A stretch of 64,000 bases of DNA from a virus (taxonomy: Duplodnaviria; Caudoviricetes), in the IMG/VR virus record IMGVR_UViG_3300014039_000538, positions 2,460 to 66,459 of that record; one strand, given 5' to 3'. The notes below the pieces were generated by a model. The model was not told the origin of the DNA and did not search any database. It was given only the letters and a program-made list of their open reading frames with translations. The translations under genes were made by a program, and so were the position numbers. The stretch's first letter is position 1; each line of letters opens with the position of its first letter. Positions 13,398 to 48,935 of the stretch are shown here, in pieces.

Positions 13398-13414
13398 TCA
13401 GTTTACACCCTCTT

Positions 13415-13562
13415 AAAACAAAAAAAGCAACCAAAACACCTGGAAACTGCGCCCCGATGTTCCAAGCTGCCTTTATGAAAGTGCAAACTTCTATTCTCGA
13501 TTACGATTTAATAAAGTTGTAATTCTTATTTACATATTACACCAAAACCCCCTCGCGGTCAA
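13415..13562 (-). promoter_or_regulatory. Leader cassette A: promoter, conserved box, terminator
   Basis: TTGACC-N17-TAATAT (13562-13534); TTTGCACT-N6-AAGGCAG (13487-13467); hairpin; U7 at 13420-13426. Confidence 0.7.
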
Positions 13563-15944
13563 TTATTCAGATTTAATAGTAATATCTCCGAACAATTCTT
13601 TAAGCATAGACCTTAAAGCTGCAAGATAAGAATCTGTATTACCACTTTCATAAGCTGCTTTTAAATTCTTATCCCTTTGCATTTTTCTAATTGCGTCGTC
13701 TACTTCGCCCTCGTCTACAATACCGTCCGCCTTATGTCCGCCAGTACCGAATAAGCCGCCTTTTTTATATCCTAAAGCTGCATACTTTCCGATTTCTTCA
13801 ATGGCTAGTTTATCGAGTTCATCATTTCCTGTGCCTTCTGAATAAAGGTTAGCGAAAACGCTATTATCATTTATTTTATATCCTCGTAGGTTTGCAAAAG
13901 ACAAGCCTTTAGAACCTGTTATATAACTCTTTACCGCCCCGGAATAATCTCCAAGATTTGATGATTCTTCCGCAACAAGTTCTGCTACAAGGTTTTGTCC
14001 TAAAGGCGTCTCTAAAGCTTCAGGATTTATTGATGAATCTAAAGCAATATTTTCTGCGACTTTTATAGCGTTTTCTTCCGAACTGGCTACCGATAGTGCT
14101 TTTTTCATAATATTTGTACCGTCGCCGTCGTCCGCTTCTTTAGGAGTATTCTTTTTGTTTTCTGCAATATCGTCAAGTTTCCTTAAATTCTGCCAAAATG
14201 ACGATTTAGAATCAAGAACTTCACTCGTTGCTATTCTGTTTATATCATCCTGCCACTTTGTCTCTTCGCTCTGATAATTGCGGTCTTTCTGCATTTTTGC
14301 TACTTCGTTCGCAAAATCCTGTTCCGTATAACCGCCTGTGCCGATTTTATCAGCCATTGCAGCGACATCAACCGCACCGTTGTAATTCAGTTTGAAGATG
14401 TCCTTAAAACGCTCAACTCTTGCAGCATAATTTCCGCCCTCAAGGTCTTTTACGCTCTTTGCAATCGCTGCGAACATTTCAGGATTATTTCCTTGTTCCA
14501 TAAGCAGCATTTCGTCAATGTATGTTCCGCTTGCCCTATTTCCTAAATACTTCTCTTTATTGCCTTTTACATTCAATACATCTCTTGCCGCACCTGCTAC
14601 AATAACATCGCTTACGCTCTGCAAAGCCGTTGCGCTTGAAATACCGCTATTCATTTGCGCAAGTCGTTTCGCGCCCTGCTCACCCTGCCACAATGGACTA
14701 TTGTCGCTTAACCGTGAGAACATTACGAATGTTTTAGAGACATCTTCCGCGCTCTTTACATAACCGTTTGCGATTCCGTCCTCAATAACGCTCTGCAAAG
14801 ACTGTAAAAACTCTTCATTCTGCGCTTTTGTAAGTCCTGCCGCCTGTCTCGCCTGACTTGCATAGCCTAAAACATCGCTATTGTCGCCGTAACGCCTTGC
14901 AGTTCCTAAGAAATTCTGAATAACTCCGGCATCCGTTCCCGTCGCTTGCGCCCACATAGCAATATCTCTTGCCTGTGTCATAGCGTCCGACTGTGTGCCT
15001 CCGAACTTTGATTGTCTTGTAGCAAGGCTTAAAAACTCTTCCGTTGAAAGTCCTGTAGCGTTTGCCTTATCTGTAGCGTCTTTTAAAATAGCGTCGGTCT
15101 TATTGCTATTCTCTAGCCATGTACCGCCGTCCGAAAACCTTTTATTGAGTGCATTAGTTCCGGCAAGTGTTTTTCTGTACGCTTCACCCTCTGCAATATC
15201 GGCTCTTGCGTCTCCTGCCCAGTATTTCGCAAGCGCGCCGCCGATTTCTGCAATTCCGCCGGCAGCCATTAAGCCCCAACCGACCGGCGTTGCACCAAGC
15301 ATTAAACCTGTACCAAGCAAACTACCGCCGATTCCCTGCGCAATTCCTGCGCCGCTCTCTACCGCTGCGACATCAGCACCCAAATAGTCGCCGTTTGCCA
15401 TAGCGATACGATGATTAAAACCGATTCCGGCAATCTGATTAGCGTAACTCAAACCTTGTGTAAGGTATCTTGAAACGCCGTACTTTTTAATCATATCCAT
15501 TACAGAACTATCGCTTTTATCGGCGGTTTCAAGGCGTTTTTTCTCCGCTTCAAGCTGCCTTTTTTCCTGCTCCGCATTGTTCAATGCAGCGGAAAGATTA
15601 AAAGATTCTTTCGACTGTCCTTTTTCGGTTGATTCTTTCAACTGGTCTGTAAGAGTAGTAATAACGCGCGTAATTGTTTCAAGTCTTATATCAAGCTGCC
15701 GCGCATTGTTGTATTGTGTCGTATTTTGCAGGTTTGAACCGTTGCCGCCATTATTGCCGCCGACGACTGAAAAGCCCGGATTCTGCATAAAGGCAATATC
15801 CTGCGTAATCTTTGCAGCCTCGCCCCAGTTTCCGGCGTCCTGCGCTGCTTTAAGTTTTCTCTGCAATTCCTCAATAGAGTTTCCGAGCGCGCCTATATTT
15901 CTCTGCGCGTCCGATGTATCGGCGTTCAATCTCAATGCAACCAT
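13563..15944 (-). CDS. Tape measure protein
   Basis: 793 aa, helical, Ala/Gly-rich with a hydrophobic segment; follows tube and chaperone genes. Confidence 0.8.
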   Translation of the reverse strand: MVALRLNADTSDAQRNIGALGNSIEELQRKLKAAQDAGNWGEAAKITQDIAFMQNPGFSVVGGNNGGNGSNLQNTTQYNNARQLDIRLETITRVITTLTDQLKESTEKGQSKESFNLSAALNNAEQEKRQLEAEKKRLETADKSDSSVMDMIKKYGVSRYLTQGLSYANQIAGIGFNHRIAMANGDYLGADVAAVESGAGIAQGIGGSLLGTGLMLGATPVGWGLMAAGGIAEIGGALAKYWAGDARADIAEGEAYRKTLAGTNALNKRFSDGGTWLENSNKTDAILKDATDKANATGLSTEEFLSLATRQSKFGGTQSDAMTQARDIAMWAQATGTDAGVIQNFLGTARRYGDNSDVLGYASQARQAAGLTKAQNEEFLQSLQSVIEDGIANGYVKSAEDVSKTFVMFSRLSDNSPLWQGEQGAKRLAQMNSGISSATALQSVSDVIVAGAARDVLNVKGNKEKYLGNRASGTYIDEMLLMEQGNNPEMFAAIAKSVKDLEGGNYAARVERFKDIFKLNYNGAVDVAAMADKIGTGGYTEQDFANEVAKMQKDRNYQSEETKWQDDINRIATSEVLDSKSSFWQNLRKLDDIAENKKNTPKEADDGDGTNIMKKALSVASSEENAIKVAENIALDSSINPEALETPLGQNLVAELVAEESSNLGDYSGAVKSYITGSKGLSFANLRGYKINDNSVFANLYSEGTGNDELDKLAIEEIGKYAALGYKKGGLFGTGGHKADGIVDEGEVDDAIRKMQRDKNLKAAYESGNTDSYLAALRSMLKELFGDITIKSE

Positions 15945-15966
15945 AAATTACTACTCCCAAAGCATT

Positions 15967-16023
15967 AAAAAAGAAACAGTCCGCTTCCAGTCCATTAACA
16001 GACTAAAAACAGACTGTTTTCTT
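15967..16023 (-). terminator. Terminator-like hairpin just upstream of the tape measure gene
   Basis: AAACAGTCTG...CGGACTGTTT outer stem, inner AGTCTG/TGGACT stem, then a U-run. Confidence 0.5.
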
Positions 16024-16027
16024 TCCG

Positions 16028-16303
16028 CTACTTCATATTCAAAATATCCTCGTCCGTATATCCCAAGTCTTTCAACTCGTCGTCGTGGATTTCTTTTTCC
16101 TTTTCCATTTCGTCCTTTAAGTAACCGTTCAAAATACTTTCTTCCGTGAAGGTATTTGCGAACCTAAAGAACAATTCTATAAAGTCGTCGTCAATGTCAT
16201 TTAACTTTACCGGCAACTCCCGAAAATATACCATTGTCCACAGTTTCCGAAATGTCCTCTTCGACAACAGTTCTTTTATCGGTCTTTTCTTCATTTCCTC
16301 TAA
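16028..16303 (-). CDS. Tail assembly chaperone, second (gpT-like) segment
   Basis: RPIKELLSKRTFRKLWTMVYFRELP... overlaps the chaperone C-terminus in the +1 frame; start uncertain (frameshift or ATG near 16234). Confidence 0.5.
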   Translation of the reverse strand, partial: LEEMKKRPIKELLSKRTFRKLWTMVYFRELPVKLNDIDDDFIELFFRFANTFTEESILNGYLKDEMEKEKEIHDDELKDLGYTDEDILNMK

Positions 16304-16706
16304 AGTTACTCTGCACTTTAAGACGAAAAGACCATGCCTTAACATACACTTCATCAATGAAGTCTGTATCAGGCATATCCCCCCAACTGAATGATTTATT
16401 TTTTTCTTTGATATTGTTAAACCAGTTTTCGCCGGATTCAATTACTACATCAAGATAGGCTACTTTCTGCATAGCAAAGTTTGCCATATCGTCAAAGCTG
16501 CTTGCCGGAAGTCCGCCGCGCATTGCAGCAATTTTTCTGTCAATAAACATCAAGTCTTTCTGCTTCGGAAATTTCACTACAAACTTTCCGCGTGATGTTT
16601 CAATAGTCTCTTTTACTGTTTTTCCGTTCAAAAGTGCATAGAAAATATCTTCCTGCTTTTCGTCGTCAAATACTTCTGCCTGTTTAATTTCTTCGGTAAT
16701 TTCCAT
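16197..16706 (-). CDS. Tail assembly chaperone (gpG-like)
   Basis: Between tube and tape measure; likely start MEITEE at 16706 behind GAGGTG. Confidence 0.65.
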   Translation of the reverse strand: MEITEEIKQAEVFDDEKQEDIFYALLNGKTVKETIETSRGKFVVKFPKQKDLMFIDRKIAAMRGGLPASSFDDMANFAMQKVAYLDVVIESGENWFNNIKEKNKSFSWGDMPDTDFIDEVYVKAWSFRLKVQSNFRGNEEKTDKRTVVEEDISETVDNGIFSGVAGKVK

Positions 16707-16864
16707 TTCTTCACCTCTCATATAAGAATTGTTTTTCAAAAAGTTCTCAAAATTGCCCTATAACCGCCTAAAATAGGCTCTAGGAGCGTCCTTTATAGCA
16801 AGTTCGATAATTTAATCAAACTTGCCAAAAGAAGCCCTAGAATAGCCCATTTTTAAGCCCTTTA

Positions 16865-17365
16865 TTATTTATTGTAAAGGTCGCTATTTGGATAATCAGA
16901 ACCGTTAAAGAATCCGATTGATTCAAAAGAACAGTTTGCAATCATATAGCCCTTGCCACTTGAACGCTCTGAATAAGAGTTCAGGATAGCCCAAGTTGTA
17001 GAGGCGATAACTGCCTTTGCCTTCTTGTCGTAAAGTTCAAGATACGGAATCTTAGCCGTTTTCTCTTCCTCGACGATTGTATCAATGTTCGGATTGAGTT
17101 CCTTAATACAAGCCGCGTCGTTAAGACTGAATCCTTTAGCCGGTACGAATCCGCTGAATGTAGTGCTTACGCTTACACCAGTGATGTCGATAGCTACCGG
17201 CAAAAACTCGCCCAATACTTCGGCTTTCTGTGTTTGGAACTGCGCGCGCATTTCAAAGTCCTGTACAAGACCAATAGGTTTTGCACTTGCGGCGTCTGCA
17301 CCTGCGCGTACGATACAGTTCTTGCCCTGCACAAGGGAATCGCCCTGCAAATTGTAATCTGCCAT
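16865..17365 (-). CDS. Tail tube protein
   Basis: 166 aa directly after sheath; IGLVQDF...AEVLGE..P..I motif. Confidence 0.75.
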   Translation of the reverse strand: MADYNLQGDSLVQGKNCIVRAGADAASAKPIGLVQDFEMRAQFQTQKAEVLGEFLPVAIDITGVSVSTTFSGFVPAKGFSLNDAACIKELNPNIDTIVEEEKTAKIPYLELYDKKAKAVIASTTWAILNSYSERSSGKGYMIANCSFESIGFFNGSDYPNSDLYNK

Positions 17366-17376
17366 ATTTTACCCCC

Positions 17377-19083
17377 TTACACTTCTACGGTCGAACTGTA
17401 GACCTTGTTTGTCGCGGTAATAAATACAAAGTTGTTTGGAGCGCGGATATATCTGTCAAATGTCAAATAAATCTTGTCGCCGTCAAAACGTACTTTTGCA
17501 TTTTCGTAAAGGTTTGCGCCATTCTTTGTGATAAGAGAATCCGCATACCATTCTTTAGACTTGTTTTCCAAAGTCTGAATGATTGAACTTTCAGAAGGCT
17601 CGTCGTTTGTACCGATACGGCGATTAAACGCCTTGCGCAAGTCTCTATCCATGTAAAGAACGGAACGAATCATAGAACGCTCGTTCAGGACAAGAGAATC
17701 GCCCTGATAAGTTGTGATACAACGAATACAAACAAGTTCGCCGTCGTCATTCTCGCCGAATGTTACAACGCCGCCGGCAATCATTTTGTTAAGTTCGCTC
17801 TCTTTGTACTTTGTGCCAAAAGAACTAACCTTGATTGTCTTGTTTGTAAGCGGATTGCTTACACCGATTGCACTTTCAATACCTGCGCATTTACAAGCCA
17901 AAAGTGCAGGAGTGATTTCTTCACTTGCACCTGTAAGCGGATTGTTTGCAACTGCGCTTGTACAAACGAGTGAAACAAGTTCGCTATTATAAGTTTTAGC
18001 CTGTGTAATGGCGTTATCAATGCTTGTACCTTTTGGAGTACCAATCCAACAAGTACGCTCTTTTTTCTTGCTTACTGTAGACATACTTACACAATGGTCT
18101 ACGATAAGTGAGCAAATATCGCTATCGGTTTCAGGTGTCGCGATAATCTGAATATCTTCTTTTTCAAGAAGATTGATTGCGGTTTCCCAATCCGATGTTG
18201 TAGCCGTACCTGCGCTTGCGCCTGAAAAATACTCATATCCTTCGTCATTGTCCGGGATAAGACGGCTAGCACCTGTAAGAGTAACATTACCCTCGCCGAT
18301 GTACTGAACACTTTCCAGTGCTTCGATAAGTGCCTGTAAATCACTGTTGAAAGTTGCAGCGGTGTCAAGAACACTTACGCCTGATACATGGTCAAGCTGC
18401 TTTGTTGGTGTGTTTGGTGTGGTATCAATCAATGTTGCGCTATAAACGCCCGAATCATTGATTTTTGCTACCAGTTCGTCAAGAATTTCGCACTCTTCCC
18501 ATGTGATAGAAAGATTGTCTGCGGTAACATCTGTAGTAAGTGTCAAGCCTGTAGCGTTGATTGTACAAGCCGCGCTTGCACCTTCACCCAAGTAAAGAAT
18601 TGAGAATGATTTTTTTGTGATGTTGTCGATTTCAACTTCACTGCCCTTGTAGTTTACAAGAACTTTTTTTCCTGTAGTTCCTGCTTTAAGCCACATTTTC
18701 AACTGATTCATGTGTGCGCCATAATCGGCACTTTTCAAAGTAAGAACTGATGTGCTGCCGTTTTTGAGTGTACGGCTAGACTGTGTACCTGCATTAACGC
18801 GCATACAGTAAACCTGCTGCGGAACATAGGTATTTGAGCCATTGAAAGCCTGTGCGACTGCTTCAAGAAGTGTACCGCTAACAAGAAGGTCTTTAGCCTC
18901 TGCCTTGTCCGATACGGCGTGAAGTGTCAAAGGTTTTCCGCCCATTGATGTACCGATGATACAAAGGTTTCCACTGGAAACGCCTGTACCTGCGCCTACT
19001 GTATTACGACGAGAATATGTTCCCGGAATGTAATGACTTGAAGACTGTCCGGCACTGTTGAATTTTGCTGCTGAAACGCCCAT
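17377..19083 (-). CDS. Tail sheath protein
   Basis: 568 aa, HYIPGTYSR...CIIGTSMGGKP N-terminus and C-terminus typical of sheath proteins. Confidence 0.85.
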   Translation of the reverse strand: MGVSAAKFNSAGQSSSHYIPGTYSRRNTVGAGTGVSSGNLCIIGTSMGGKPLTLHAVSDKAEAKDLLVSGTLLEAVAQAFNGSNTYVPQQVYCMRVNAGTQSSRTLKNGSTSVLTLKSADYGAHMNQLKMWLKAGTTGKKVLVNYKGSEVEIDNITKKSFSILYLGEGASAACTINATGLTLTTDVTADNLSITWEECEILDELVAKINDSGVYSATLIDTTPNTPTKQLDHVSGVSVLDTAATFNSDLQALIEALESVQYIGEGNVTLTGASRLIPDNDEGYEYFSGASAGTATTSDWETAINLLEKEDIQIIATPETDSDICSLIVDHCVSMSTVSKKKERTCWIGTPKGTSIDNAITQAKTYNSELVSLVCTSAVANNPLTGASEEITPALLACKCAGIESAIGVSNPLTNKTIKVSSFGTKYKESELNKMIAGGVVTFGENDDGELVCIRCITTYQGDSLVLNERSMIRSVLYMDRDLRKAFNRRIGTNDEPSESSIIQTLENKSKEWYADSLITKNGANLYENAKVRFDGDKIYLTFDRYIRAPNNFVFITATNKVYSSTVEV

Positions 19084-19095
19084 ATTTCAACCCCC

Positions 19096-19350
19096 TTAAA
19101 TTGACCCAACTTTGCGGTTACGAACCCATTCGTAAAGTTCGTCCCACTCTTCCAAAGTGTGAACCTCGCTCTTGTAACGGTTTTTCATTACTGCCGTCCA
19201 ACTGCGCGAAAGTTCACGAACCTGACAATACCGTACAACGCCCATTCTTTTAGGAGTTGCAGCGGCTACCGTTGCCGTAGATGTAGATACAGAAGTAACT
19301 TCCTCTGCAACTTCCTCTACGGATTCCGACAAAGTGCTTTTACTTGCCAT
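19096..19350 (-). CDS. Hypothetical protein
   Basis: 84-aa ORF with RBS filling the operon gap. Confidence 0.6.
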   Translation of the reverse strand: MASKSTLSESVEEVAEEVTSVSTSTATVAAATPKRMGVVRYCQVRELSRSWTAVMKNRYKSEVHTLEEWDELYEWVRNRKVGSI

Positions 19351-20107
19351 AATTGTTTGCCTCCGTGATTATTTCTTTGCTTACATCTGTAAGTTCTGTG
19401 TTCAACACAATTTGCTCGACGCAATAATTCACATCAAGCGAAATGTGCGCGCCGCTCAATGCGACATCAAAATCAAAGTTGTAGTTGTTGCTTCTGTGTC
19501 CTACAATCGTATTGTCAAAAATCGCAATATCAAAAAAACTGTATCTTGCTTCCAAAAGATGTGTAAGATTGCCGGTGATAAAAAGTCTTAACTGCTCGTA
19601 AATCTCATTTTTAAGCTGCACATTTTCCGCCCATACCTCAAAGCCTAAAGTATCTTTGCGGCGGATTCTCATAGAATAACCGTAACAATAATTCTGTTTT
19701 TTGATTGTCGCTTTAATCGCGTCCAGTGTTTCATCATCAACTACCGTACAAAGCCCCGGAATTTCTCTTGTTTTCTGAACGCCCTTTTTATTTATGTATG
19801 TTTCTGTCGTTTTTGTGATTGCTTCAAGGTCGCTTTCTGTAATTCCTATACCGTCGGTTTGTGTAATAGCCAGTTCGTCAAACTCATACGGTTTTCGGTC
19901 TTCCTGTGTAGTGATTACGACACAAGGAAATGAATCGCTCGCGTTTTGTCCTTCATGCAGATATAACTCCGCAAATGGGTGTTCGGTCGTTACTGATATG
20001 TGGAAGTTTTTATATTTATTATCCAAATGCAGCGTGTCAAAATATTCTCTTACAAGCGCAACAAGAGCCTGTTCTAAGATTATTCCACGGTTTAAATAAC
20101 ACAACAT
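19340..20107 (-). CDS. Tail completion/neck protein (putative)
   Basis: Likely start MLCYLNRG at 20107 (ORF-track extension runs through the leader terminator); upstream of sheath. Confidence 0.55.
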   Translation of the reverse strand: MLCYLNRGIILEQALVALVREYFDTLHLDNKYKNFHISVTTEHPFAELYLHEGQNASDSFPCVVITTQEDRKPYEFDELAITQTDGIGITESDLEAITKTTETYINKKGVQKTREIPGLCTVVDDETLDAIKATIKKQNYCYGYSMRIRRKDTLGFEVWAENVQLKNEIYEQLRLFITGNLTHLLEARYSFFDIAIFDNTIVGHRSNNYNFDFDVALSGAHISLDVNYCVEQIVLNTELTDVSKEIITEANNYGK

Positions 20108-20132
20108 TTTTCGTCCGCACCTCGAATGAAAT

Positions 20133-20267
20133 AAAAAAAAGACAACGCAAAACACGGTCTTTCCGCGCCTACGCTGCCTTTCCATAAGTGCAAACGATAT
20201 GACAAAATAATTATCTTAAAATAATATTATTCCCTTATAGAATACTTGCAAAACCCTCTGTTGTCAA
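20133..20267 (-). promoter_or_regulatory. Leader cassette B: promoter, conserved box, terminator
   Basis: TTGACA-N17-TATTCT (20267-20239); TTTGCACT-N6-AAGGCAG (20194-20174); G-U-containing hairpin; U8 at 20133-20140. Confidence 0.72.
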
Positions 20268-20275
20268 TGCAACAA

Positions 20276-21091
20276 CTATATACCCAAGTCCTGTTCAAGT
20301 CCTGCCTCTAAGATGTCCTCGACATTCTGCCTTGTAGTCTTCTCAACTGCACTTACAACATCGTTTGCAGGTACTTCTTTTCTTACCCACGCGCTTTCAG
20401 GAGACTTTGCCGAAATAATGCGGAATGTAAAATAAGTGCTGCCGGTATTACTGCGCATTTTTACCATACCGTTAGCGTTTCCGGCGTCCTCGTCCTTTAT
20501 CCTGTCGCCCCAGTCGTACTCTGCGCGTTCTATGTTTTCGCCCTTAAAGTTTGCTTCCGGGTGTGTGTTTTCCGTTGTTTCCGACTTTCTGAACTTCCGA
20601 GACTGTAATATTTTGTAGACTTCCAAAGGAATTGTATTGCCAAAATGCGCCCTTGCGCTGCCGTCCTTGTTCGGTGTACCCCAACGGAAAGGAATAATAA
20701 GATATGGCACGCCCTTATTTTTGCCGCTCTGTGTTACGCGGCTTTTCTTTCCGTATGGATATTTAGTCTTCATATCAAATTCAGGGCTTCCGTTCTGAAT
20801 CCGCTCCATATAGCGCGAATCGGTCTCAATGCTCATGTCAAAATCATTTATTTTTCTGATATGAATACTGGAAGCAAGCCGGGAATTAGGATTTTTAATA
20901 TCCGCCGCGCCGATTAAACTACCGCCCATAGCCCAATTCTGCCATGATTTTTGAATCAGTTTTGCAGCCATATTAAAGGCGCGTGAAGTTCCCGGCATAA
21001 CCTTTGCACCTGCTCCGCCTGAAAGCCCTGCAAGGTTTTCTTTTAATTGAGAAATTAAATCGTTGTTCAAGTCTACGCTAATTCTAATCAT
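20276..21091 (-). CDS. Neck/head-tail joining protein
   Basis: FDMK...YLIIPFRWGTP...YFTFRIIS..S..SAW pattern resembling neck proteins of SPO1/K-like myoviruses; position. Confidence 0.55.
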   Translation of the reverse strand: MIRISVDLNNDLISQLKENLAGLSGGAGAKVMPGTSRAFNMAAKLIQKSWQNWAMGGSLIGAADIKNPNSRLASSIHIRKINDFDMSIETDSRYMERIQNGSPEFDMKTKYPYGKKSRVTQSGKNKGVPYLIIPFRWGTPNKDGSARAHFGNTIPLEVYKILQSRKFRKSETTENTHPEANFKGENIERAEYDWGDRIKDEDAGNANGMVKMRSNTGSTYFTFRIISAKSPESAWVRKEVPANDVVSAVEKTTRQNVEDILEAGLEQDLGI

Positions 21092-21302
21092 TTACGTCTC
21101 TGAAAACTCTGATTTTCCGCCGATAATTTTTATATGCGTACAGATACATATTATACAAAATGGAAAACCGAACATCGCTATTATTGTGATTCCTGCGGCG
21201 CAAAAGTTGATGGCTCCGCCCCTGCCGAGTTTCTCCTGCCACAAGAGTATTACGAAAAGAACCTTTGCCCATTCTGCAAGCATGAACTTACAAAGAAAAA
21301 AA

Positions 21303-21500
21303 CTAATCAAGCGGAAAATCCTGTTGAATAATCATGTGCATAAAAAGTTTAGGCTTATCATCTTCCGCGCTTATAACTTCCGGCTCGTAAATCCTTACGA
21401 GTTCATAGCCTTTTTCTTCCAAGATTTTTGCGATTTTATCTCCTTCATCTTTCGCCGCCTTGCGGAATTTCATGTAATTGTCAAAGTCTGCCTTTGTCAT
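21303..21500 (-). CDS. Hypothetical protein
   Basis: 65-aa hydrophilic ORF, GGGGT RBS. Confidence 0.6.
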   Translation of the reverse strand: MTKADFDNYMKFRKAAKDEGDKIAKILEEKGYELVRIYEPEVISAEDDKPKLFMHMIIQQDFPLD

Positions 21501-21504
21501 TTTG

Positions 21505-23625
21505 CTACCCCCATATCTGCAAAAAGTGTTTTTTTATTTCTTCTACTCGTACTAAGCAGGATTTTTTGATTCCATTATCAATTTTGCTTAACAACACTTT
21601 ATAAATCGCTTTAGAAAGTTTTTGAGCCTTTTCTCCATTTGTTAGATAATCGCTCACTCCTTCTGCAATACATTCAGCGTCGCTAGTCATTGCATAGCGT
21701 GAAATATCCCACATTTCTGAAAGTGAAGGATATTTTTCTAATTCGTTTTCTGTTGGATATTGAGAACGCTTTGCTCTTCTTTTATCACCAATTCCCAAAG
21801 ATTTTAATGCTTCATCAATTATCAATTTATTTACTTTATTACAACTTTCTTCATGGTATTTGATTCTTACATGACTTTCAGCAATTTCATACTTCCTACG
21901 AACACTTACAATTTCTGTTTTATCGCCTTCCTTTTTGAAGTTTTCAAAAGTTCCGTATTTTTCCCTGTAGTTTTGTGCTTTATTTTCTTTTGAATTGTAA
22001 AACCAATATTCAAATGCCTTGTCAAAAGGTTTTATACCGAACTTCTCACCGTATGCCTTAAAAAGCATTTCACTAATTGCGTGTCCTGCTTCGTGCCGTG
22101 TAACAGCTTCGATGCTCCTACCCCTTGTAAAAGGTCTTTTTGTATCACCTATATCTTTCTTTATCTGCTCTATATTTCCAATACATAAAGAATACTCTCC
22201 AGTTGAAGATGAATTATAGAGACCTGCCCATTTAGCTCCGGGTTTAGAATACTGAATTCTTTGTATAAACTTTGGCAAATCGGGAAAATCTTCCGTCATT
22301 TTTTCAATTTCAACAAAACTTTTTAGACATTGCTCAAACGGAACTTCTCCATGTCTTACGACAATATCGAGATTATATTTATCTTTTGCGTAATTTTTCA
22401 GTTCAGAAATGTTTTTACAGACATCTTTTGCATATTTCTGCTCTTTCTGTTTGGTTGAAGATTGACCTTCATCTTGTTGCCTATTGTAAAATTTTTCTTT
22501 TTCATTGACATTGTTGTAATCTTGCGCTATATTATTTTTAGGAGCGTCCGTATTTGGTGGGTAACCGCCGCTACTTCCTTTCGGAAGATTGACGCTCTTT
22601 TTTATTTCTCCGAGATTGTGAACTGAAAGATAAAAATATTTTCCCTTCTTTTTCTTTTTAATAATCAATCGTATTGCGGTTTCTTTTCCGTCAATATCTG
22701 CCTTCCCCATAACAACAAAGGCAATTTTCTTTGTAACTACATCTTGATATACACTTCCTTTTACGCCGGTATTTTCTAAAATATCACGAACGAAAGGTAG
22801 GCATTTTGCTCTTCTTTCAAGCTCTTCGACATCTCTTTTTTTTCTGCCATTATAAAAGAAGTGCTTTATACTATCGCCGTCAAAGCGGATTCTAATTTTA
22901 TCGAATAATGGAGAGTTTACAGGGCTTGTATTCCATGATTCAAGCATAGATTTTAAATAATCGGTTGTTGTATTTTCAAGGTCTGAAAAATCAATCTTAC
23001 AATCTTTATCAGGTGTAGCGTTTTTCGCTTTTTCCGCAATTTTGCGATAATCGGATTTTTCAAACTTTCCGTATTTGAATCCGTATAGAGGCTCGCTTTC
23101 ACTCTTGATTTTATCACCTTTTAATTGATATTTCCTTGCGTCCACTTCCTTTTTAAGTTCCAGTACAATATCAAGCGGCTTTCCGTTTTCATCAGAAAAT
23201 CTGTGAGTATTATTCATTACGATTTCAAAAAGTTCGTCTACACTCTGCGCTTTTCTTACCCTGCCTTTAAGCCGGGCAATAGATATTTCAGTATGTTTGT
23301 CGTGAGTATCATAGATGCTTACCCACTTTTTATTAGGCATTTTCTTGTATTTCTTGCCGTTCCATGTACGAACTTCACCAACTACGCCGACTTTACCGCC
23401 CTTTGCCATATATAAAGGGTCTGTCATGCTCTTGTAAAGTTCCTGAACGATAAAAGACTTGCTTACTTCTTCGCCGCTCTCTTCTTTTTCCTTCTTATCC
23501 AGTATTTTAAGAAGTTCGCTCTTGAAGTATTCAAGTTTACGGTCTTCCACCGATTTTTTGAGAATCCCAATATCTGATTTTCTTATTCCAAGTTTCTTTT
23601 TATTGCACATTACATAACTTGTCAT
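21505..23625 (-). CDS. Polyvalent head-region protein: shared N-terminal module, LPD3/PBECR-like domain, zincin metallopeptidase
   Basis: HEAGH...YAMTSDAECIAE zincin motif; IRFDGDSIKH...YFYLSV segment; N-terminus homologous to 33556-36000. Confidence 0.6.
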   Translation of the reverse strand: MTSYVMCNKKKLGIRKSDIGILKKSVEDRKLEYFKSELLKILDKKEKEESGEEVSKSFIVQELYKSMTDPLYMAKGGKVGVVGEVRTWNGKKYKKMPNKKWVSIYDTHDKHTEISIARLKGRVRKAQSVDELFEIVMNNTHRFSDENGKPLDIVLELKKEVDARKYQLKGDKIKSESEPLYGFKYGKFEKSDYRKIAEKAKNATPDKDCKIDFSDLENTTTDYLKSMLESWNTSPVNSPLFDKIRIRFDGDSIKHFFYNGRKKRDVEELERRAKCLPFVRDILENTGVKGSVYQDVVTKKIAFVVMGKADIDGKETAIRLIIKKKKKGKYFYLSVHNLGEIKKSVNLPKGSSGGYPPNTDAPKNNIAQDYNNVNEKEKFYNRQQDEGQSSTKQKEQKYAKDVCKNISELKNYAKDKYNLDIVVRHGEVPFEQCLKSFVEIEKMTEDFPDLPKFIQRIQYSKPGAKWAGLYNSSSTGEYSLCIGNIEQIKKDIGDTKRPFTRGRSIEAVTRHEAGHAISEMLFKAYGEKFGIKPFDKAFEYWFYNSKENKAQNYREKYGTFENFKKEGDKTEIVSVRRKYEIAESHVRIKYHEESCNKVNKLIIDEALKSLGIGDKRRAKRSQYPTENELEKYPSLSEMWDISRYAMTSDAECIAEGVSDYLTNGEKAQKLSKAIYKVLLSKIDNGIKKSCLVRVEEIKKHFLQIWG

Positions 23626-24806
23626 TTCTTGTTTACCCCTCGTTTTTCGCCGTATGTATCGTAAAGTTTAATAACGGCTTTTTTCGGCATACGCTGATTT
23701 TCACTCGTTCTAATCTGCGGAATCGACTTAACAACTTTGTATGTCGGGAATACCTTATAAGTCAAAGAATAACCTTCGCCGTCGTCCGGGCAATCATCGC
23801 AAAGCCATTTAAGATAGTTTGCGCCGCACAAGATAAAATCCGTACCCTGCACATATTCCCGGCCTTTTCCTATGCAGCTTACAATTTCATCAACGAAATA
23901 CGCCGGAATAACATCATAATCAGCGTCTTTTTTGCTCACTACGCTTTTTTGTGTATAAGTTCCGCTCAATACTGTTATGACATCATCAAGCGCGACATCA
24001 TAAGCGTATGGGAATGTAAGAACGCCGTCGCCGTTGTTTTCCTGCATTATCTGCGCGTCCGATTTATTAAGATTCTGATTCAGGATAACAAAAGTAAACG
24101 GCGGTATGTACTGCACATTCTTTATATAAAGTGTTTCCGGCGGCTCAATTTCTGTTATTTCGCCGGTCTCTTCGTCTTCAACTTCACGCGGTTTTACAAA
24201 AATACAATCCTGTCTTATTTCGCCGATTTCGTAAGTATTGCCGTCAATATCTTTTACTTCCTCGACGCTTTCAATATCACCCGGCGCGGTATGGAATAAG
24301 CCTTCTGTCTTCATTCTTGAACTACGCAAGCCCATTACCCTGTAATATCCGCTACCAACACTTACCGCCGTTGTAGTCTCTACGGTCTGCAAAATATCCT
24401 GCTCCATAACGGCGGTAACATAAACACCTTTTACCGGCAATAAAGGCGTATTAAGCATTACGAAAGAACCAACCTTTGTCGCGTTTTCGTAAACTCTGCC
24501 GGAATTGTCATAACATTTTGTCAATGGGCAATCTACAAACTCCGCGTCAAGTTCAATCATTCCTGAACTATCGCGAATCATTACAGTTTGTGAGACTACC
24601 GCTTTTTTCTGATAACCAAAAATAACACCAAGTCCGCCGCATTTTTTACAATGAATATCCGGCTGCATAGAGTTTTCTTTGACACAAGGGCATTTTGTAG
24701 CGACGCGCCACCTTACCCACTGTCCGTGTCTTTGAATGAGTGCCTCATAATTTTCTTTACCAAGTTCAAGTTGAACCGGGCTGTCCTTGCCAAGCCCCTG
24801 TCCCAT
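23622..24806 (-). CDS. Head completion/neck protein
   Basis: W..ATKCPC....C..CGG.G motif seen in head-completion proteins of SPO1/K-like phages. Confidence 0.6.
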   Translation of the reverse strand: MGQGLGKDSPVQLELGKENYEALIQRHGQWVRWRVATKCPCVKENSMQPDIHCKKCGGLGVIFGYQKKAVVSQTVMIRDSSGMIELDAEFVDCPLTKCYDNSGRVYENATKVGSFVMLNTPLLPVKGVYVTAVMEQDILQTVETTTAVSVGSGYYRVMGLRSSRMKTEGLFHTAPGDIESVEEVKDIDGNTYEIGEIRQDCIFVKPREVEDEETGEITEIEPPETLYIKNVQYIPPFTFVILNQNLNKSDAQIMQENNGDGVLTFPYAYDVALDDVITVLSGTYTQKSVVSKKDADYDVIPAYFVDEIVSCIGKGREYVQGTDFILCGANYLKWLCDDCPDDGEGYSLTYKVFPTYKVVKSIPQIRTSENQRMPKKAVIKLYDTYGEKRGVNKK

Positions 24807-24849
24807 TTGTCAGCCTCTATATAATTTTTGGAAGATAATTTTCACAATG

Positions 24850-25977
24850 CTAAATTGAGCCGATTGCCATATTCGCAAATTTGTTTTTGTTTGCTTTTAT
24901 ATATTCTTTTACATCGTCCTTATACACGGCAACACGCGCGCCGAAATAAGCGCTGGTAGCCGACTGTGTGGAGCTGAATGATTCTGAAAGTCCGTCCATG
25001 CTCAAAGAACTTGAAGAAAATCCCGACATCAAGCCGTCGCCAATAATGTTCAAAAGGCTTATTGCAGCCTGTTTAGCAATAACTTCTCTTAAATCCTGCG
25101 GAATCTCGTCCGATGTTTCGTAACCTGCGTCATAATCTATTGCATAGAATAACTGTGCGGATAATGTTTGATTTCCGTAAATGCCTATAGCGGTCTGAAT
25201 ACCGCTTGAAGTTTCGGAAGGTCTTATAGGGCGTTCCATGAGTTTAAGAATGCCTTTTGTTTTATCAATAATGGTAGTCTGTGTAAGGTCTTTTACGCCC
25301 TGCCAACGAGTAAGCAATGAAAGTTTGTGAAGTTTAATAATCGGTTTGCGGCGTGTTTTGATATATCCATATCGTGAAATTCGCGAAAATTTGAAGTCGT
25401 AAACCGCTTCGTCTATGTCATAATCAGAACCTTTTGCAAGATTTCTTTCTGCTGCATTGTATCTGATTTTCTTTTTCTTAATCGTAATATCAAGCTGCCG
25501 TTCCAATTCTGCGACCGCCGAATCAATGAAATACTGAATCTGTTCGTCAGTATAACTCTGTCCGTTTGTAGCCTTAAAATCTGTACCCCAAAGGTAAGTA
25601 AATCTCAAATCATCAGGCGTTACGATGTTTCCCCACTGTCCGGCAGGCACTTTATAGTTTCCGAAAGTGTAGCCTATTGCACCGTCGCCGCCGTTTCTCA
25701 CCCAGTTTGAATAAATATAATCTGCGCCCTGTGGATTTTCCGCTTCAAAATCAACATAGCGGTATGCGTAAAGTGTGTTTGATTCTGCGTTTGAATCGAC
25801 AATATCACCGTTTACGGCGATTGCCGGATTCTCTTCATCAGGAGTGCAAAAACCGTTAGCCGTCCAAACAAGATATGTATCATCATCGTATGAATGTCTT
25901 TCAAGCCGATAACTTGAATGTGCATTATCGCTGATTGACACTAAAATCTTGTTGTTTATTGAACTTGCAGTAATCAA
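24850..25977 (-). CDS. Head-tail adaptor protein (putative)
   Basis: Follows capsid; IDSAVAELERQLDI...YDAGY...IPQDL...SLSMDGLSES. Confidence 0.6.
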   Translation of the reverse strand: MITASSINNKILVSISDNAHSSYRLERHSYDDDTYLVWTANGFCTPDEENPAIAVNGDIVDSNAESNTLYAYRYVDFEAENPQGADYIYSNWVRNGGDGAIGYTFGNYKVPAGQWGNIVTPDDLRFTYLWGTDFKATNGQSYTDEQIQYFIDSAVAELERQLDITIKKKKIRYNAAERNLAKGSDYDIDEAVYDFKFSRISRYGYIKTRRKPIIKLHKLSLLTRWQGVKDLTQTTIIDKTKGILKLMERPIRPSETSSGIQTAIGIYGNQTLSAQLFYAIDYDAGYETSDEIPQDLREVIAKQAAISLLNIIGDGLMSGFSSSSLSMDGLSESFSSTQSATSAYFGARVAVYKDDVKEYIKANKNKFANMAIGSI

Positions 25978-26002
25978 TTTTCACACTCCTTTTTGAAGAT
26001 TC

Positions 26003-26386
26003 TTATTTTGTGAAAGAGAATCCCGGTACATCTTTGAAATGCAGCGCGTCCTCTAACTTGACTTTGGCAAAGCCTTCATCGTCAAAAGTAATGACTTCGC
26101 CGGTAGAACCTGTAACCGAGCGACCGGCTCTTTTTACCGACCACACATTTACAGTTCCGTCAGAATTGACTTTGAACGGCAAGCCGCTCTCGTCCTTCTG
26201 TTCGGGCTTTTCAGTAACCGCCGGTTTAGAATCTTCCTGCGATTCTGCCTTTTCTACTGTTGTTGCGTCAGTCTTTACTTCTGCGACTGTCTCAACCTTT
26301 TCAGTAACCGCCGGTTTAGCAGCGGCTACTGTAGGCTTTTTGGCAACATCAGTTTTCTGTGTCTTTGATGTTGTTGTTTTTGCCAT
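26003..26386 (-). CDS. Hypothetical protein (low-complexity N-terminus)
   Basis: 127-aa ORF coupled to the capsid stop codon. Confidence 0.6.
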   Translation of the reverse strand: MAKTTTSKTQKTDVAKKPTVAAAKPAVTEKVETVAEVKTDATTVEKAESQEDSKPAVTEKPEQKDESGLPFKVNSDGTVNVWSVKRAGRSVTGSTGEVITFDDEGFAKVKLEDALHFKDVPGFSFTK

Positions 26387-27789
26387 TAGTACAAGCCTCC
26401 GTTGTAAGAAATGTTCTTAACAAGTCCACAATGTTTAGGCGCACGAACTTCGAGACCACCGTAAAGCATTACGAGGAACGGAGTTTCTGCGGTGTTTGTA
26501 GGCGCGAGAGGGAATGTACAAGCCGGGAGCAACTGTCCGAATGTGTACACCGGCTGAAAACGCTTCTTTGGAAGGAAAATCATAGAAGCAGTTCCCGGAA
26601 GTTCATCGTTTGTATCTTCGTAAACGGTTGTAGCGTTTCCGCTATTTGCTACCTTATCCATTTCCATTACCTTTGTTTCGTCCTTCTTAGAACGGCAGAT
26701 AATGAAGCCGGTTGCGGCAACACCTGAACCCGGTGTAATTGTAAGTGCTACTTTGTTTCCTGCGGCAACTGTTACGGCTGCGGAGATTGAAGTACCTGCG
26801 GAAATACCATACTGGTTTACGGCGTGTACAGTGTACATATAATCACCTGCGTCTGCCGCTGCGAAAGATGAGCCTGAACCACTTGCGCTTGCAGCAACGC
26901 TTGCAGGGGCGGCAGGTCTGCGAGTTGCATCGCCTTCTGCTACTACTTCGCCCTTTACTTCAAAGAACATATCATCGCCGGCTTCTTCACCGCTCAATGC
27001 AATGTTTGCACCGATTGCAGTTCCATAGTCAGGAATTGTCTTGAAAGAAAGGTTAGGAATAGGATTGTTCATCAGATAACGCTGCTTGTCAGCGAAAATT
27101 TCCTTGATGTCTTTTGCAAGAACTGTAGGGAAAAGTGCCTTGTCAAGGAATCCACCTTTAGCACGAACCATAGCGGCGATTTCGTCAAAAATCTTTTCGC
27201 CATAGTTGCCTAGTGTAGAACCTTCAAGGTTGATAATGTTCTGGTCTGCTGCGTTTGCTTTCTTGATAGAAGCAAGGAATCCGTCAAACTCTGTAGGAAC
27301 GATAGAAGAATCACCGTGGAAACACTGATATTCAGCACCCTTGATGATTGTTTCAACACCTGCAAGTTTTTCGCTTGCGAGTGCGCCTTCAAAAGTCTCT
27401 GCGGCTTCCATTTGCTTTGTAACGGAGCGGCGTGTCTGCAAGTATTTCATTGCGAAAGTCTTACGTTCAAGAGACTGGTCTGTGTCGATTGACGCACCGC
27501 CTTCTGCTACAGAAAGGTGGCGGTAATCACCGTGTCCAGTACGCAAGTTTACTTCATGCACTGTTGAGCGAACAGGTGTCTTCTTAACACTGTTCATAAC
27601 TTTACAGTCTTCTTTCAACTGCGCAACAACATTTACTACTTCTGATTCAAGATTTTCAGGAATCAGAGCGCGACCACCGGTAAACTGTGAGGAATCTGTT
27701 CCGTAACCGGCTGCAAGTGCTTTCTGCAATTCGTTTACTTCACCTGCGCTCATTTCGCCGGAAGAAACATTGTCAAAAAATCCTGCCAT
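26386..27789 (-). CDS. Major capsid protein (A511/K-like precursor)
   Basis: LQKALAAGYG...GGRALIPENLE N-terminus resembles Herelleviridae Cps; follows protease. Confidence 0.9.
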   Translation of the reverse strand: MAGFFDNVSSGEMSAGEVNELQKALAAGYGTDSSQFTGGRALIPENLESEVVNVVAQLKEDCKVMNSVKKTPVRSTVHEVNLRTGHGDYRHLSVAEGGASIDTDQSLERKTFAMKYLQTRRSVTKQMEAAETFEGALASEKLAGVETIIKGAEYQCFHGDSSIVPTEFDGFLASIKKANAADQNIINLEGSTLGNYGEKIFDEIAAMVRAKGGFLDKALFPTVLAKDIKEIFADKQRYLMNNPIPNLSFKTIPDYGTAIGANIALSGEEAGDDMFFEVKGEVVAEGDATRRPAAPASVAASASGSGSSFAAADAGDYMYTVHAVNQYGISAGTSISAAVTVAAGNKVALTITPGSGVAATGFIICRSKKDETKVMEMDKVANSGNATTVYEDTNDELPGTASMIFLPKKRFQPVYTFGQLLPACTFPLAPTNTAETPFLVMLYGGLEVRAPKHCGLVKNISYNGGLY

Positions 27790-29282
27790 TATTTTGCCCC
27801 CTTGTTGAGCCTTGTCTGCAAGAACTCAAAATATTTTGGATTCATAGGTCTTCCGGTGTTCATGCACTTCTGAAAGTCCGATGAAATCATGCTCGACTGA
27901 ATCATGTCGATTGCGCCTTCGTCTACTGCCTTTTTAAGAACAAGCTGCACATTGTACAGGTCATCTTCTGTAGGTCTAGCCAAAAGATTCTGCTTACCTG
28001 CGTTAATGCTTTTGTTAAGCACTGTGCGAGGTGGAATCTTCTGATTTCCGATTGCTGAAACCATTTCTGCAAGTCCGACAATAGCCTCTCCTAAATCGTT
28101 AAGGCGTTTTTCTGTGGCTTTCTGTGATTTAGCCAAAGTAGTAATTGAAGCGTCCAGTGCTTTCAACACTTCGCCGCCGTCTACCATGTCTTCATCATTG
28201 TTTTCGCCGTCGTCCTCGTTTTCTTCATCTTCGTCGTCCTCATCTTCGTCTTCATCGTCAAGGTCAATGCCGTCGTTTTCATCACCGAGGTTTTCGTCGT
28301 CAGCGTTTGCGCCGTCTTCGTTGCCCTTCTTGATGTCTTCGTCATCGTCCTTTGGATTGCCGCCTGTGAGAGATTTCAGAAGGTCAGAAACCGCATTGGA
28401 AAATGATTTTTTCATCATTTGCCCCCCTTGATTTATTATTTCCGAGGTAATCTCCCCGGCTTTTTCCTTTGAAATACCGTGTAAAATTAAGAACTCAATA
28501 GCGTCGTCCTTGCCGTTGATTCTGCGATTCTTAGCAAGTTCAACAAGCTGCGCTATGATTTCTTCTTCGTTTACATCGGATTTACTGATTGCGTGAGTAT
28601 TTGAAACATCAATAGTCTTTGTGCTTACATCTTCCGGGATAAGTGCCTGTCCGCCGGTCTTTATAGCGGAATCAGTGTTATATCCGGCGCAAAGTGATTT
28701 TTTTAATTCAAGCGGCAAATAGTCTACAAACTCCGCCGCCGTCATGCTTTTTGCAAAAACTGCACTTCCTACCGTGTTATTTACCGGGCTTGTTGTAAGC
28801 GCAAGGTCATTCCAAAGAACATGAGTGATTTTTTCAACGCCGGTTTTAAGATTTTTTACTACCTGTGGGAAAATACCGCCGACACTGGCGCGTACTCTTG
28901 TAGAACCGGCTTTAAGCATTTTAATCAGGTCTTTTGCTTTATCGTTGTTTGAGTAGAGTTTACCTTTTACGATTGTCTTTTTGTTTTCTTCGTCAAAATA
29001 AACATCTATCGGCTCACCGATAACCATTGAAGGGTCTGAAATAATATTGCCCTCTTCGTTTCTGCGCTTGTGTAAATGGTCAAAAGAAATAACGCCGCCC
29101 TTTAAGAACTCGTCTTTTGATTCCATTAAAGCGCGCTGCAATACAATCTGATTCTGTAAGTCAAGATTTTCGTTTGACGCTTCTACTTCAAAAATATAAT
29201 TTCCAAAGTCGTCTGTTTTTCCTGCGGATTTTCGTATCTCCAAATTGAGATAAACATCATTGAACTTGTCTGTATCGGTCAT
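27789..29282 (-). CDS. Prohead protease with C-terminal scaffold-like region
   Basis: EVEASNENLDLQNQ, HLH, ASVGG, LALTTSPVN motifs; acidic linker; likely start MTDTDKF at 29282. Confidence 0.85.
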   Translation of the reverse strand: MTDTDKFNDVYLNLEIRKSAGKTDDFGNYIFEVEASNENLDLQNQIVLQRALMESKDEFLKGGVISFDHLHKRRNEEGNIISDPSMVIGEPIDVYFDEENKKTIVKGKLYSNNDKAKDLIKMLKAGSTRVRASVGGIFPQVVKNLKTGVEKITHVLWNDLALTTSPVNNTVGSAVFAKSMTAAEFVDYLPLELKKSLCAGYNTDSAIKTGGQALIPEDVSTKTIDVSNTHAISKSDVNEEEIIAQLVELAKNRRINGKDDAIEFLILHGISKEKAGEITSEIINQGGQMMKKSFSNAVSDLLKSLTGGNPKDDDEDIKKGNEDGANADDENLGDENDGIDLDDEDEDEDDEDEENEDDGENNDEDMVDGGEVLKALDASITTLAKSQKATEKRLNDLGEAIVGLAEMVSAIGNQKIPPRTVLNKSINAGKQNLLARPTEDDLYNVQLVLKKAVDEGAIDMIQSSMISSDFQKCMNTGRPMNPKYFEFLQTRLNKGAK

Positions 29283-29302
29283 TATGCACCCCGAAAAGAA
29301 AT

Positions 29303-29458
29303 AAAAAAAAGACAGTCCGCAAAAGTTCAGTACAAGCCGTACCGTCTTTTTCCGAGACTGCCTTCTTAGAGTGCAAATCACATGGAATCTTATTCAAGAA
29401 GTTTTTTGTTAAAAACTCTTATTTTCTACATTCTAAAATCTATGGCTCTATTTGTCAA
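29303..29458 (-). promoter_or_regulatory. Leader cassette C: promoter, conserved box, terminator
   Basis: TTGACA-N17-TAGAAT (29458-29430); TTTGCACT-N5-AAGGCAG (29377-29358); long hairpin; U8 at 29303-29310. Confidence 0.75.
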
Positions 29459-47546: not shown

Positions 47547-48362
47547 CTAGTCCTCTTCCTCGCGCGTAATTGCGCCGATTGCTGCCAGTTCCGACATTTC
47601 AGCCGTCTCGCGGTTCTGCTTAATAACCTTTGTTTTTACCTGCAATTTCTCGCCGATAATCTCCGCCGTCGTTTCAATGTCAAAATCGTTGCCGTTGTCT
47701 TCGGTGTCTTTCAGGTCTTTATAAATCTTCAAAAGTTCATTTTCTGTCTGTGTTTTAGAAGGTATTTTGTAATGCGGTATGCTTCTTTGTCCTACAAACT
47801 CAACATCTTCAATAAGTTCTTTTTGTTCTTCCGTAAGTTCTTCCGGCGTTTTAATCATCGCGTTTACATACTCAAAACCTTCATCGGTTATCTTGCGTTC
47901 AATGTTGTAAAACTCTTCCGCTCTCATGTTCAGGCGCGCTTGTTTGCGTTCAATAATTGCCTTTACGGTCGATTCTAGGTCAAGTTTAGTAAAGTTCTTT
48001 AATAATTGAGTGTTAATATTTTTAATCTCCGCAAGAATCAGCGGATTTTTAAGAAGTTGTCCGGCTTGTGTTTTAGCGGTCTTTTCTGAATAACCGGCAA
48101 GTCTAGCGGCTTCTGCTGCATTTTTTTTCAAGCTGCTTTGATTTGCATAATGAAATACAAATAATCTTTGAGCGTCGGTAAGATTCTGCGTCCACTTCAA
48201 TTCAGAATCAAGATTTATGTATTTACTGCCGTTATTGATTATTGCAATAAGAGGTAATTTGTCTTTTTTATTCTTTGCCGGTGTTTTTCTCTTTTTCGAT
48301 ACTTCGGGAATTGTATTGATTGAATTGTCAATAGAATTATTGTTTGTTGTTGCTTCGTTCAT
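47547..48362 (-). CDS. Terminase small subunit
   Basis: LTDAQRLFV..Y......NAAEAARLAGYSEKTA...GQLLKNP. Confidence 0.85.
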   Translation of the reverse strand: MNEATTNNNSIDNSINTIPEVSKKRKTPAKNKKDKLPLIAIINNGSKYINLDSELKWTQNLTDAQRLFVFHYANQSSLKKNAAEAARLAGYSEKTAKTQAGQLLKNPLILAEIKNINTQLLKNFTKLDLESTVKAIIERKQARLNMRAEEFYNIERKITDEGFEYVNAMIKTPEELTEEQKELIEDVEFVGQRSIPHYKIPSKTQTENELLKIYKDLKDTEDNGNDFDIETTAEIIGEKLQVKTKVIKQNRETAEMSELAAIGAITREEED

Positions 48363-48522
48363 CGGTCTTTATATCCTCTTTGCATTTATGGAGCGGATAA
48401 CCTATAAACTTATGTCCGTTATCGTTCACCACTTCCAGTGGTACACTCTCACACACTACCTGTGCGTTATATCCTGTAGCGATGTATTTAATGTTTGCGC
48501 CGCATTTCGGGCATTTCTGCAT
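48337..48522 (-). CDS. Small zinc-ribbon protein
   Basis: MQKCPKCG...HKC; likely start 48522 behind GGGGG. Confidence 0.55.
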   Translation of the reverse strand: MQKCPKCGANIKYIATGYNAQVVCESVPLEVVNDNGHKFIGYPLHKCKEDIKTDERSNNKQ

Positions 48523-48906: not shown

Positions 48907-48935
48907 ATTCTACCCTGTCGGGTGTTAAAAATCAA
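48907..48935 (-). promoter_or_regulatory. Putative sigma70 promoter for the packaging operon
   Basis: TTGATT-N17-TAGAAT; 8-bp inverted repeat GTATCATT/AATGATAC downstream (48851-48872). Confidence 0.5.

Follow-up and report, generated by a model that had tools for sequence, protein, structure and literature searches.

Conserved promoter, box and terminator leaders ahead of the structural operons of a Treponema-type prophage: a putative antitermination gate with an added translational lock

The window analyzed here is a stretch of 64,000 nucleotides (nt) from the IMG/VR provirus record IMGVR_UViG_3300014039_000538 (66.5 kb; positions 2,460 to 66,459), a Treponema-type prophage, and the element under study is a leader that occurs three times ahead of its late operons. 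All genes of the window but one lie on the minus strand. Read along that strand, the order starts with a recombination, replication and methylase set (YqaJ, RecT, an exonuclease, SSB, a DnaC-like protein and C5 methyltransferases) and continues with DUF1064, a protein of 110 amino acids (aa) here called p110, a 61-aa zinc ribbon, the terminase genes terS and terL, and the portal gene. After the portal come a MuF-InPase protein, an 1820-aa protein, a PBECR3/ParB protein and a small accessory region ending with an HD-domain gene. The three operons that carry the leader follow: copy C heads the protease and major head protein genes together with further genes behind them; copy B heads a 255-aa gene, the sheath, tube and chaperone genes and a 793-aa gene, probably the tape measure; and copy A heads a tail protein gene with lysin activity (481 aa), then the genes labelled baseplate in the first-pass annotation of this DNA, and a fibre gene.

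That annotation had described the three leaders as a promoter, a conserved box and a terminator in succession, and all of them lie where it had placed them on the minus strand (Table 1). A near-consensus sigma-70 promoter with a 17-nt spacer was again seen before each copy. The box begins 46 nt (copy A), 44 nt (copy B) or 52 nt (copy C) after the -10 element, distances consistent with the earlier estimate of about 40-47 nt into the transcript. It is bipartite, TTTGCACT-N5/6-AAGGCAG (box1, spacer and box2), and has three exact matches in the window, all on the minus strand, against 0.00 expected from 100 shuffles. Outside coding sequence, no copy with up to three mismatches was found in the window beyond these three, and a covariance model recovered only the three leaders, at 60-69 bits, with no fourth copy. 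As had been proposed, AAGGCAG forms the base of the 5' arm of the terminator in each copy; box1 is unpaired in the predicted fold of the terminated leader. The folds of all three copies contain G-U pairs in hairpins of unrelated interior, each with the U7-8 tract that had been noted, and the 17-nt 3' end common to copies B and C is TGTCTTTTTTTTATTTC. The motif had not been recognized at first reading, and it matched no family in Rfam: the whole window at gathering threshold gave no leader match and only RT-2 RNA, elsewhere, and leaders B and C, searched at E <= 5, had chance-level matches alone, all far below gathering.

Table 1. Positions of the leader elements and of the candidate factor region in the window (RBS, ribosome-binding site; z, z score).
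Feature	Position	Strand	Sequence or remark
Copy C promoter	29430..29458	-	TTGACA-17-TAGAAT; -35 and -10 kept in orthologous copies while the spacer drifts
Copy C box	29358..29377	-	Exact match; box1 TTTGCACT 29370-29377, 5-nt spacer, box2 AAGGCAG 29358-29364
Copy C intrinsic terminator	29303..29367	-	Hairpin 29306-29367, U8 to 29303; -28.0 kcal/mol, z -5.3
Copy C RBS region and start	29280..29292	-	GGGGTGCATA, pairs with box1; ATG 29280-29282 of head protease gene (27789-29282); duplex z -2.0
Copy B promoter	20239..20267	-	TTGACA-17-TATTCT
Copy B box	20174..20194	-	Exact match; box1 20187-20194, spacer, box2 20174-20180
Copy B intrinsic terminator	20133..20183	-	U8; -25.6 kcal/mol, z -4.0
Copy B RBS region and start	20105..20123	-	GAGGTGCGGACG, pairs with CGTTTGCACTT; ATG 20105-20107 of 255-aa gene before sheath; duplex -17.4 kcal/mol, z -3.6
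Copy A promoter	13534..13562	-	TTGACC-17-TAATAT; directly after stop of 793-aa gene
Copy A box	13467..13487	-	Exact match; box1 13480-13487, spacer, box2 13467-13473
Copy A intrinsic terminator	13420..13474	-	U7; -21.5 kcal/mol, z -2.2
Copy A RBS region and start	13395..13412	-	GAGGGTGTAAACT, pairs with box1 and flanks; ATG 13395-13397 of 481-aa tail/lysin gene; duplex -17.5 kcal/mol, z -5.2
Promoter-like site before p110, zinc ribbon, terS, terL and portal	48907..48935	-	TTGATT-17-TAGAAT; no box or terminator after it
p110 (110-aa protein; candidate factor by position only)	48525..48857	-	Order p110, zinc ribbon, terS kept in all relatives
Zinc ribbon (61 aa; candidate factor by position only)	48337..48522	-	Overlaps terS start; invariant cysteines and histidines

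The late region had no megablast match among GenBank phages. When IMG/VR was scanned by exact pattern for the box together with a T-tract, the combination was found in 8 other viral contigs with one to three copies each. Among species-representative genomes the box occurred on contigs of metagenome-assembled genomes of Treponema/Treponemataceae and on one Lachnospiraceae-labelled contig, with up to three copies per contig, and the other matches were single chance ones elsewhere. Within the Treponema/Treponemataceae and Lachnospiraceae-labelled genomes, exact matches are confined to prophage contigs, and the box therefore belongs to the phage and not to the host. True copies score 9-12 out of 12 for the upstream promoter and chance matches nearly all score 8 or less, except one (L026) at 11. 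In true copies the box lies anywhere from 11 to 54 nt after the -10 element and would thus always be transcribed; it keeps a fixed position at the terminator and is independent of promoter geometry. Hairpin interiors are unrelated among paralogues and drift with compensatory changes among orthologues. No change is seen in box1 or box2 on the 5' strand, and where their partners differ, pairing is preserved by wobble (UA to UG, GC to GU). Invariance limited to the 5' strand suggests that the leader RNA is recognized in a sequence-specific manner, and the G-U pairs put the structure on the sense RNA. The leader is a real, conserved feature and looks regulatory. Conservation of the box, on the absence of which the first-pass annotation would have let its proposal fall, is seen in close relatives and prophage contigs, and the box recurs in drifted form in distant relatives. 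The three leaders on the Lachnospiraceae-labelled contig (SFNX01000019.1; L029, L050, L062) are near-identical to those of the window; the hosts of the others are all Treponema/Treponemataceae, and the Lachnospiraceae label is probably a binning error, unless this contig is where the window itself comes from.

Missed by the earlier annotation was a second property of box1. In the RNA (UUUGCACU), it is complementary to the ribosome-binding region that follows the U-tract; in nearly every copy of the window lineage this region reads (A/G)GUG(C/U)AAA or differs from it by wobble. In the minimum free energy (MFE) folds, the terminator hairpin of each true leader is enclosed by a long-range helix, in which box1 and its 5' flank are paired with the Shine-Dalgarno (SD) region and often with the start codon too. 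The mean energy of the duplex between the 5' and 3' segments was -13.2 kcal/mol for cognate pairs, -11.4 kcal/mol for non-cognate pairs and -5.9 +/- 2.3 kcal/mol for shuffled ones (cognate versus non-cognate, permutation p < 1e-4, on related sequences). Given this helix, a transcript that had passed the terminator would still be poorly translated. With box1 serving as an anti-SD sequence in the window lineage, the leader would constitute a double lock, on transcription as well as on translation. The reading of GGTGCAAA as a general RBS of the phage was ruled out, RGTGYAAA not being enriched in the window (16 matches versus 11.8 expected).

More distant relatives carry the leader with a drifted box, and there it always precedes structural operons. 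In G006, a complete genome of 71 kb, the gene-B product shares 66% identity with that of the window, and three copies are present. The one before its protease gene reads TTTGACC-N5-GGGCAG and is followed by a terminator; copies B and A (TTTGACT or TATGACT-N6-(A/G)GCAGCG) are without a terminator and form hairpins that bury SD and AUG (z -5.8 and -4.5). Eight leaders were found in G011 and four in G012, genomes whose zinc ribbons are 41% and 39% identical, respectively, to that of the window. In both, the layout is a promoter, T[AT]TG, GCAG[CT] 14-17 nt after the start of T[AT]TG, and an RBS, with GCAG[CT] forming the first bases of the terminator. These leaders head portal, protease, tail-completion, baseplate, fibre and polyvalent-protein genes, and several of them are picked up (E 5e-5 to 0.5) by the window-lineage covariance model. 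The interior of the box differs among lineages. Copies within one genome are identical or nearly so in the window lineage, in G006 and for most of G011, and are more variable in G012; a box alike within a genome and different among lineages is the pattern expected of a site that co-evolves with a phage-encoded reader. The universal elements are therefore a promoter, a bipartite box and a hairpin with box2 at the start of its 5' strand.

The module order of G012 (L147-L149) and G011 (L150-L153) is unlike that of the window, the portal gene standing apart from terL with its own leader. In G012 the baseplate genes precede the replication and terminase genes, and this record may be rearranged or chimeric. 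A plain intrinsic terminator is present in the window on the minus strand at 16019-15974, between the tail chaperone genes and the 793-aa gene, with no promoter after it; its stem base, AACAGTC, is near GGCAGTC of box2, box1 is missing, and the terminator is absent at the same place in G006.

In all four lineages a single morphogenesis unit, DUF1064 - p110 - zinc ribbon - terS - terL, is without a leader, and the portal gene gains one where it stands apart from this unit. The leader-less state of the unit makes p110 and the zinc ribbon candidates, by position only, for a factor acting on the leaders elsewhere. The p110 family comprises 46 clusters, all hypothetical and bearing Treponema names, and is confined to Treponema-type phages. 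The zinc-ribbon family has 198 representatives of 50-75 aa, several of which again overlap terS, and C4, C7, C24, H37, H45 and C47 are invariant. After the promoter-like site ahead of p110, the region 48858-48963 (minus strand) contains an 8-bp hairpin, GTATCATT...AATGATAC, without a U-tract.

Known antiterminators were also searched for. The first-pass annotation had seen no obvious Q or N homologue in the window, and none was detectable: a six-frame search of the whole record with the Q family (PF06530) gave no match, and hmmscan of about 45 early, middle and accessory open reading frames (ORFs) against all Pfam returned no antiterminator family. No match in the record was obtained for Zn_ribbon_Com (PF10122, E <= 10), CAT_RBD (PF03123) or ANTAR (PF03861, E <= 1), and no NusG N-terminal domain was found in the phage record, to which this search was confined. 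The literature searched contained no published account of leaders like these, or of regulation in phages of Treponema.

We propose that a host sigma-70-type promoter starts each of the three structural operons (head, tail and baseplate) and that, after about 40-45 nt, the transcript would enter the bipartite box, UUUGCACU-N5/6-AAGGCAG, and a terminator whose 5' arm starts with box2. By default, transcription would stop at the U-tract and yield a leader RNA of about 100-125 nt. RNA that reads through would be silent in translation, with box1 and its 5' flank paired to SD and AUG in a helix enclosing the terminator hairpin. A phage factor from the leader-less p110 - zinc ribbon - terminase operon would then bind the box on the nascent RNA; by holding box2 out of the terminator stem it would bring about antitermination, by holding box1 off the ribosome site it would activate translation, and the three operons would switch on together.

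Several features of the leaders bear on this proposal. With the promoter always ahead of the terminator and no space for a second one before the RBS, expression of the structural genes would depend entirely on readthrough. The box keeps its place at the hairpin and varies in its distance from the promoter, which argues against a promoter-tied mechanism like that of lambda Q and for recognition of nascent RNA beside the hairpin. Its retention in copies A and B of G006, where the hairpin is a translational lock without a terminator, likewise fits a factor on nascent RNA. On balance, we lean towards a factor that binds the nascent box RNA and keeps the 5' strand out of the hairpin, with antitermination and translational unlocking as the joint outcome. 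What the sequences show is the anatomy of the leaders, their conservation, its confinement to the 5' strand and the nested folds; what we infer is that there is such a factor, that RNA and not DNA is what it recognizes, and that p110 and/or the zinc ribbon supplies it. Phage antitermination or attenuation through a dedicated recognition box, as proposed earlier, is in this form the best supported reading (an order kept in every relative examined, a phage-specific box and no detectable homologue of Q/N type). It needed amendment in that a double lock is added, the -10-to-box distance is 11-54 nt, and in distant relatives the box is only T[AT]TG ... GCAG[CT] at as many as 8 operons. The alternative offered alongside it, three small RNAs (sRNAs) forming a family, is more likely a by-product, namely the terminated leaders, than the primary function. 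A bolder version seems rather doubtful to us: here a new protein family (p110 and/or the zinc ribbon) would read the single-stranded box and open both the terminator and the SD lock at three to eight operons of Treponema phages, and the leaders made in the lysogen would silence leaky or superinfecting late mRNAs as anti-RBS sRNAs.

A number of points weigh against the proposed mechanism. Transcription starts, termination and readthrough are all predictions. The plain box-less terminator at 16019-15974 would have to be read through, and a processive mechanism would fit this better. Anti-SD pairing was undetectable in G011, G012 and copy C of G006 and is therefore not part of a universal mechanism; the SD lock appears to be an addition in the window and G006 lineages. 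Moreover, the searches run gave p110 and the zinc ribbon no family, recognizable fold or RNA-binding signature. The zinc ribbon had no significant family in Pfam and nothing above background in PDB (Foldseek, VIA wide), p110 had nothing above background in PDB (Foldseek, VIA wide) or BFVD, and the ESM Atlas returned only unnamed viral clusters for p110. The adjacency of both genes to terS equally fits a possible role in packaging. One distant relative of the zinc ribbon is located in a replication region; most contigs with distant relatives are too short to show late leaders. Finally, the overall identity of the zinc ribbon does not track box type, the G006 protein being 57% identical to that of the window and its box different; set against box type, the overall identity of neither protein was informative.

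Processive antitermination, in which the box would be a nut- or put-like RNA loading site at which a phage protein and/or Nus factors render RNA polymerase terminator-resistant, would account for part of these observations. It would explain how polymerase passes the box-less terminator inside operon B just before the 793-aa gene, although that terminator is absent at the same place in G006, and why the box persists in copies A and B of G006, where no local terminator follows. Lambda nut and HK022 put are, like the element described here, cis-acting sites in leader RNA, and the succession of an 8-nt box, a spacer and a hairpin recalls boxA-spacer-boxB. In the present leaders, however, the hairpin is the terminator itself, and box2 always supplies the first bases of its stem, which suggests local action; processivity is not indicated. 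Neither a conserved boxB loop nor a conserved two-stem put-like fold was seen, hairpin loops and interiors not being conserved, and conservation is limited to the single-stranded box and the stem base. No NusG-like or Q-like protein was found in the record, and a modified polymerase would leave the SD-sequestering helix in place. We regard a processive mechanism as unlikely.

An element read as DNA appears improbable. It could be a late promoter for a phage sigma factor or activator, with transcription starting inside the hairpin, or an ops-like non-template site for a host NusG paralogue; such paralogues (LoaP, for example) have been reported in spirochaetes. Transcripts starting after box2 would escape both locks, but the conserved near-consensus sigma-70 promoter before every copy would then be purposeless, and box2 of G006 copy A ends 7 nt before the SD sequence, leaving no space for a start and a leader. 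The fairly constant spacing of T[AT]TG and GCAG (14-17 nt) resembles that of two-block promoters, yet it is too short for sigma-70 or extracytoplasmic function (ECF) factors, and the sequence is unfit for sigma-54. A transcription bubble spans about 12-14 nt, which the 20-21-nt box exceeds, and both the G-U pairs and the confinement of conservation to the 5' strand indicate selection on RNA. On inspection, the box as a sigma-54 or two-block promoter was rejected in either orientation, on sequence, on spacing and on the lack of room for a start site in G006 copy A.

A reading without any factor is in our view very unlikely as well. The leaders would then be constitutive attenuators or insulators that set low expression, or three leader sRNAs whose exposed box1, single-stranded in the terminated form, pairs in trans with the RBSs of late mRNAs. 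A promoter followed by an efficient terminator does give one defined RNA, of about 100-125 nt here; lambda PR' and the Shiga toxin (Stx) phages offer parallels, and in the latter the terminated leader is a regulatory sRNA (PMC7547250). By analogy with the Stx phages (PMC7547250), the terminated leaders of the window may be functional by-products. Head, tail and baseplate genes need high expression, however, and no other promoter lies between terminator and RBS. Strong hairpins with U7-U9 make poor attenuators, box2 is kept in the G006 copies that have no terminator, and RGTGYAAA, as given above, is not enriched in the window. Two further candidates were discarded. For an antisense or trans-acting RNA that would pair with the box, no further copy was present on either strand; a conserved antiterminator helix of box1 with box2 could have no more than 3-4 bp (UUGC/GCAG), which the G006 and G011 variants do not retain.

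Among known systems, lambda PR'-tR' with Q is alike, at the level of sequence, in its strong host-type promoter and promoter-proximal intrinsic terminator before the late genes, and its default product is a short terminated leader (6S RNA). Lambda has one such copy, against three here and up to eight in relatives. The Q-binding element (QBE) and the sigma-dependent promoter-proximal pause are fixed to the promoter in lambda, whereas here the box varies in its distance from -10 and keeps its place at the terminator; no Q homologue is present here, and a helix sequestering SD is added. BglG/SacY/LicT with their ribonucleic antiterminator (RAT) sites, HutP and the ANTAR proteins share sequence-specific recognition of leader RNA overlapping the 5' half of an intrinsic terminator. 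In contrast to these, no CAT_RBD or ANTAR domain was found in the record, the setting is that of phage late genes, and no conserved antiterminator hairpin or paired hexaloops were seen.

The Com protein of phage Mu, whose ligands follow the pattern CxxC...CxxC, differs from the 61-aa zinc ribbon (CxxC...C...H...HxC), which misses PF10122. Com acts on one mRNA and on translation only, in contrast to the several operons and the terminator considered here. Nevertheless, Com on mom mRNA (PMC6483171) is the nearest mechanistic parallel to a leader structure opened by a small zinc protein of a phage. In both cases a leader structure, here a predicted one, hides the translation start signals, the recognition motif lies 5' of or within that structure, and a small zinc protein is encoded, here a candidate opener by position only. 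A structure that sequesters SD or the start is found in the window lineage (in all MFE folds, duplex z -2.0 to -5.2) and is absent in G011 and G012. The leaders would best be filed under late-gene antitermination, as a variant that carries a translational lock in addition.

The mechanism of late-gene timing is understood in only a handful of model phages, and the leaders constitute a clean, repeated, sequence-defined putative gate in phages of uncultivated or poorly studied hosts, the Treponema of gut and rumen. They offer an RNA target of 20-21 nt, pairing partners open to compensatory mutation and two small proteins as candidates. If the proposal is true, one factor would couple antitermination with translational activation over several operons. 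In addition, the leaders could mark operon starts in the annotation of metagenomic phages.

Some further features of the window were recorded. The sole clear plus-strand gene (30934-31149) encodes a Cro/C1-type helix-turn-helix protein and lies between the packaging and head modules, within the accessory region at 30.1-33.5 kb; the HD-domain gene at 29472-30101 adjoins it. Between the portal and head genes, three very large proteins are encoded at 33556-44247 (minus strand), MuF + InPase (855 aa), the 1820-aa protein and a PBECR3 nuclease + ParB-like protein (814 aa), and a strong terminator lies within this region at 36033-36077. The RT-2 RNA (Rfam RF03077, 107 bits) is located at 2258-2508 (minus strand), adjoined by a 416-aa ORF at 998-2248 (minus strand).

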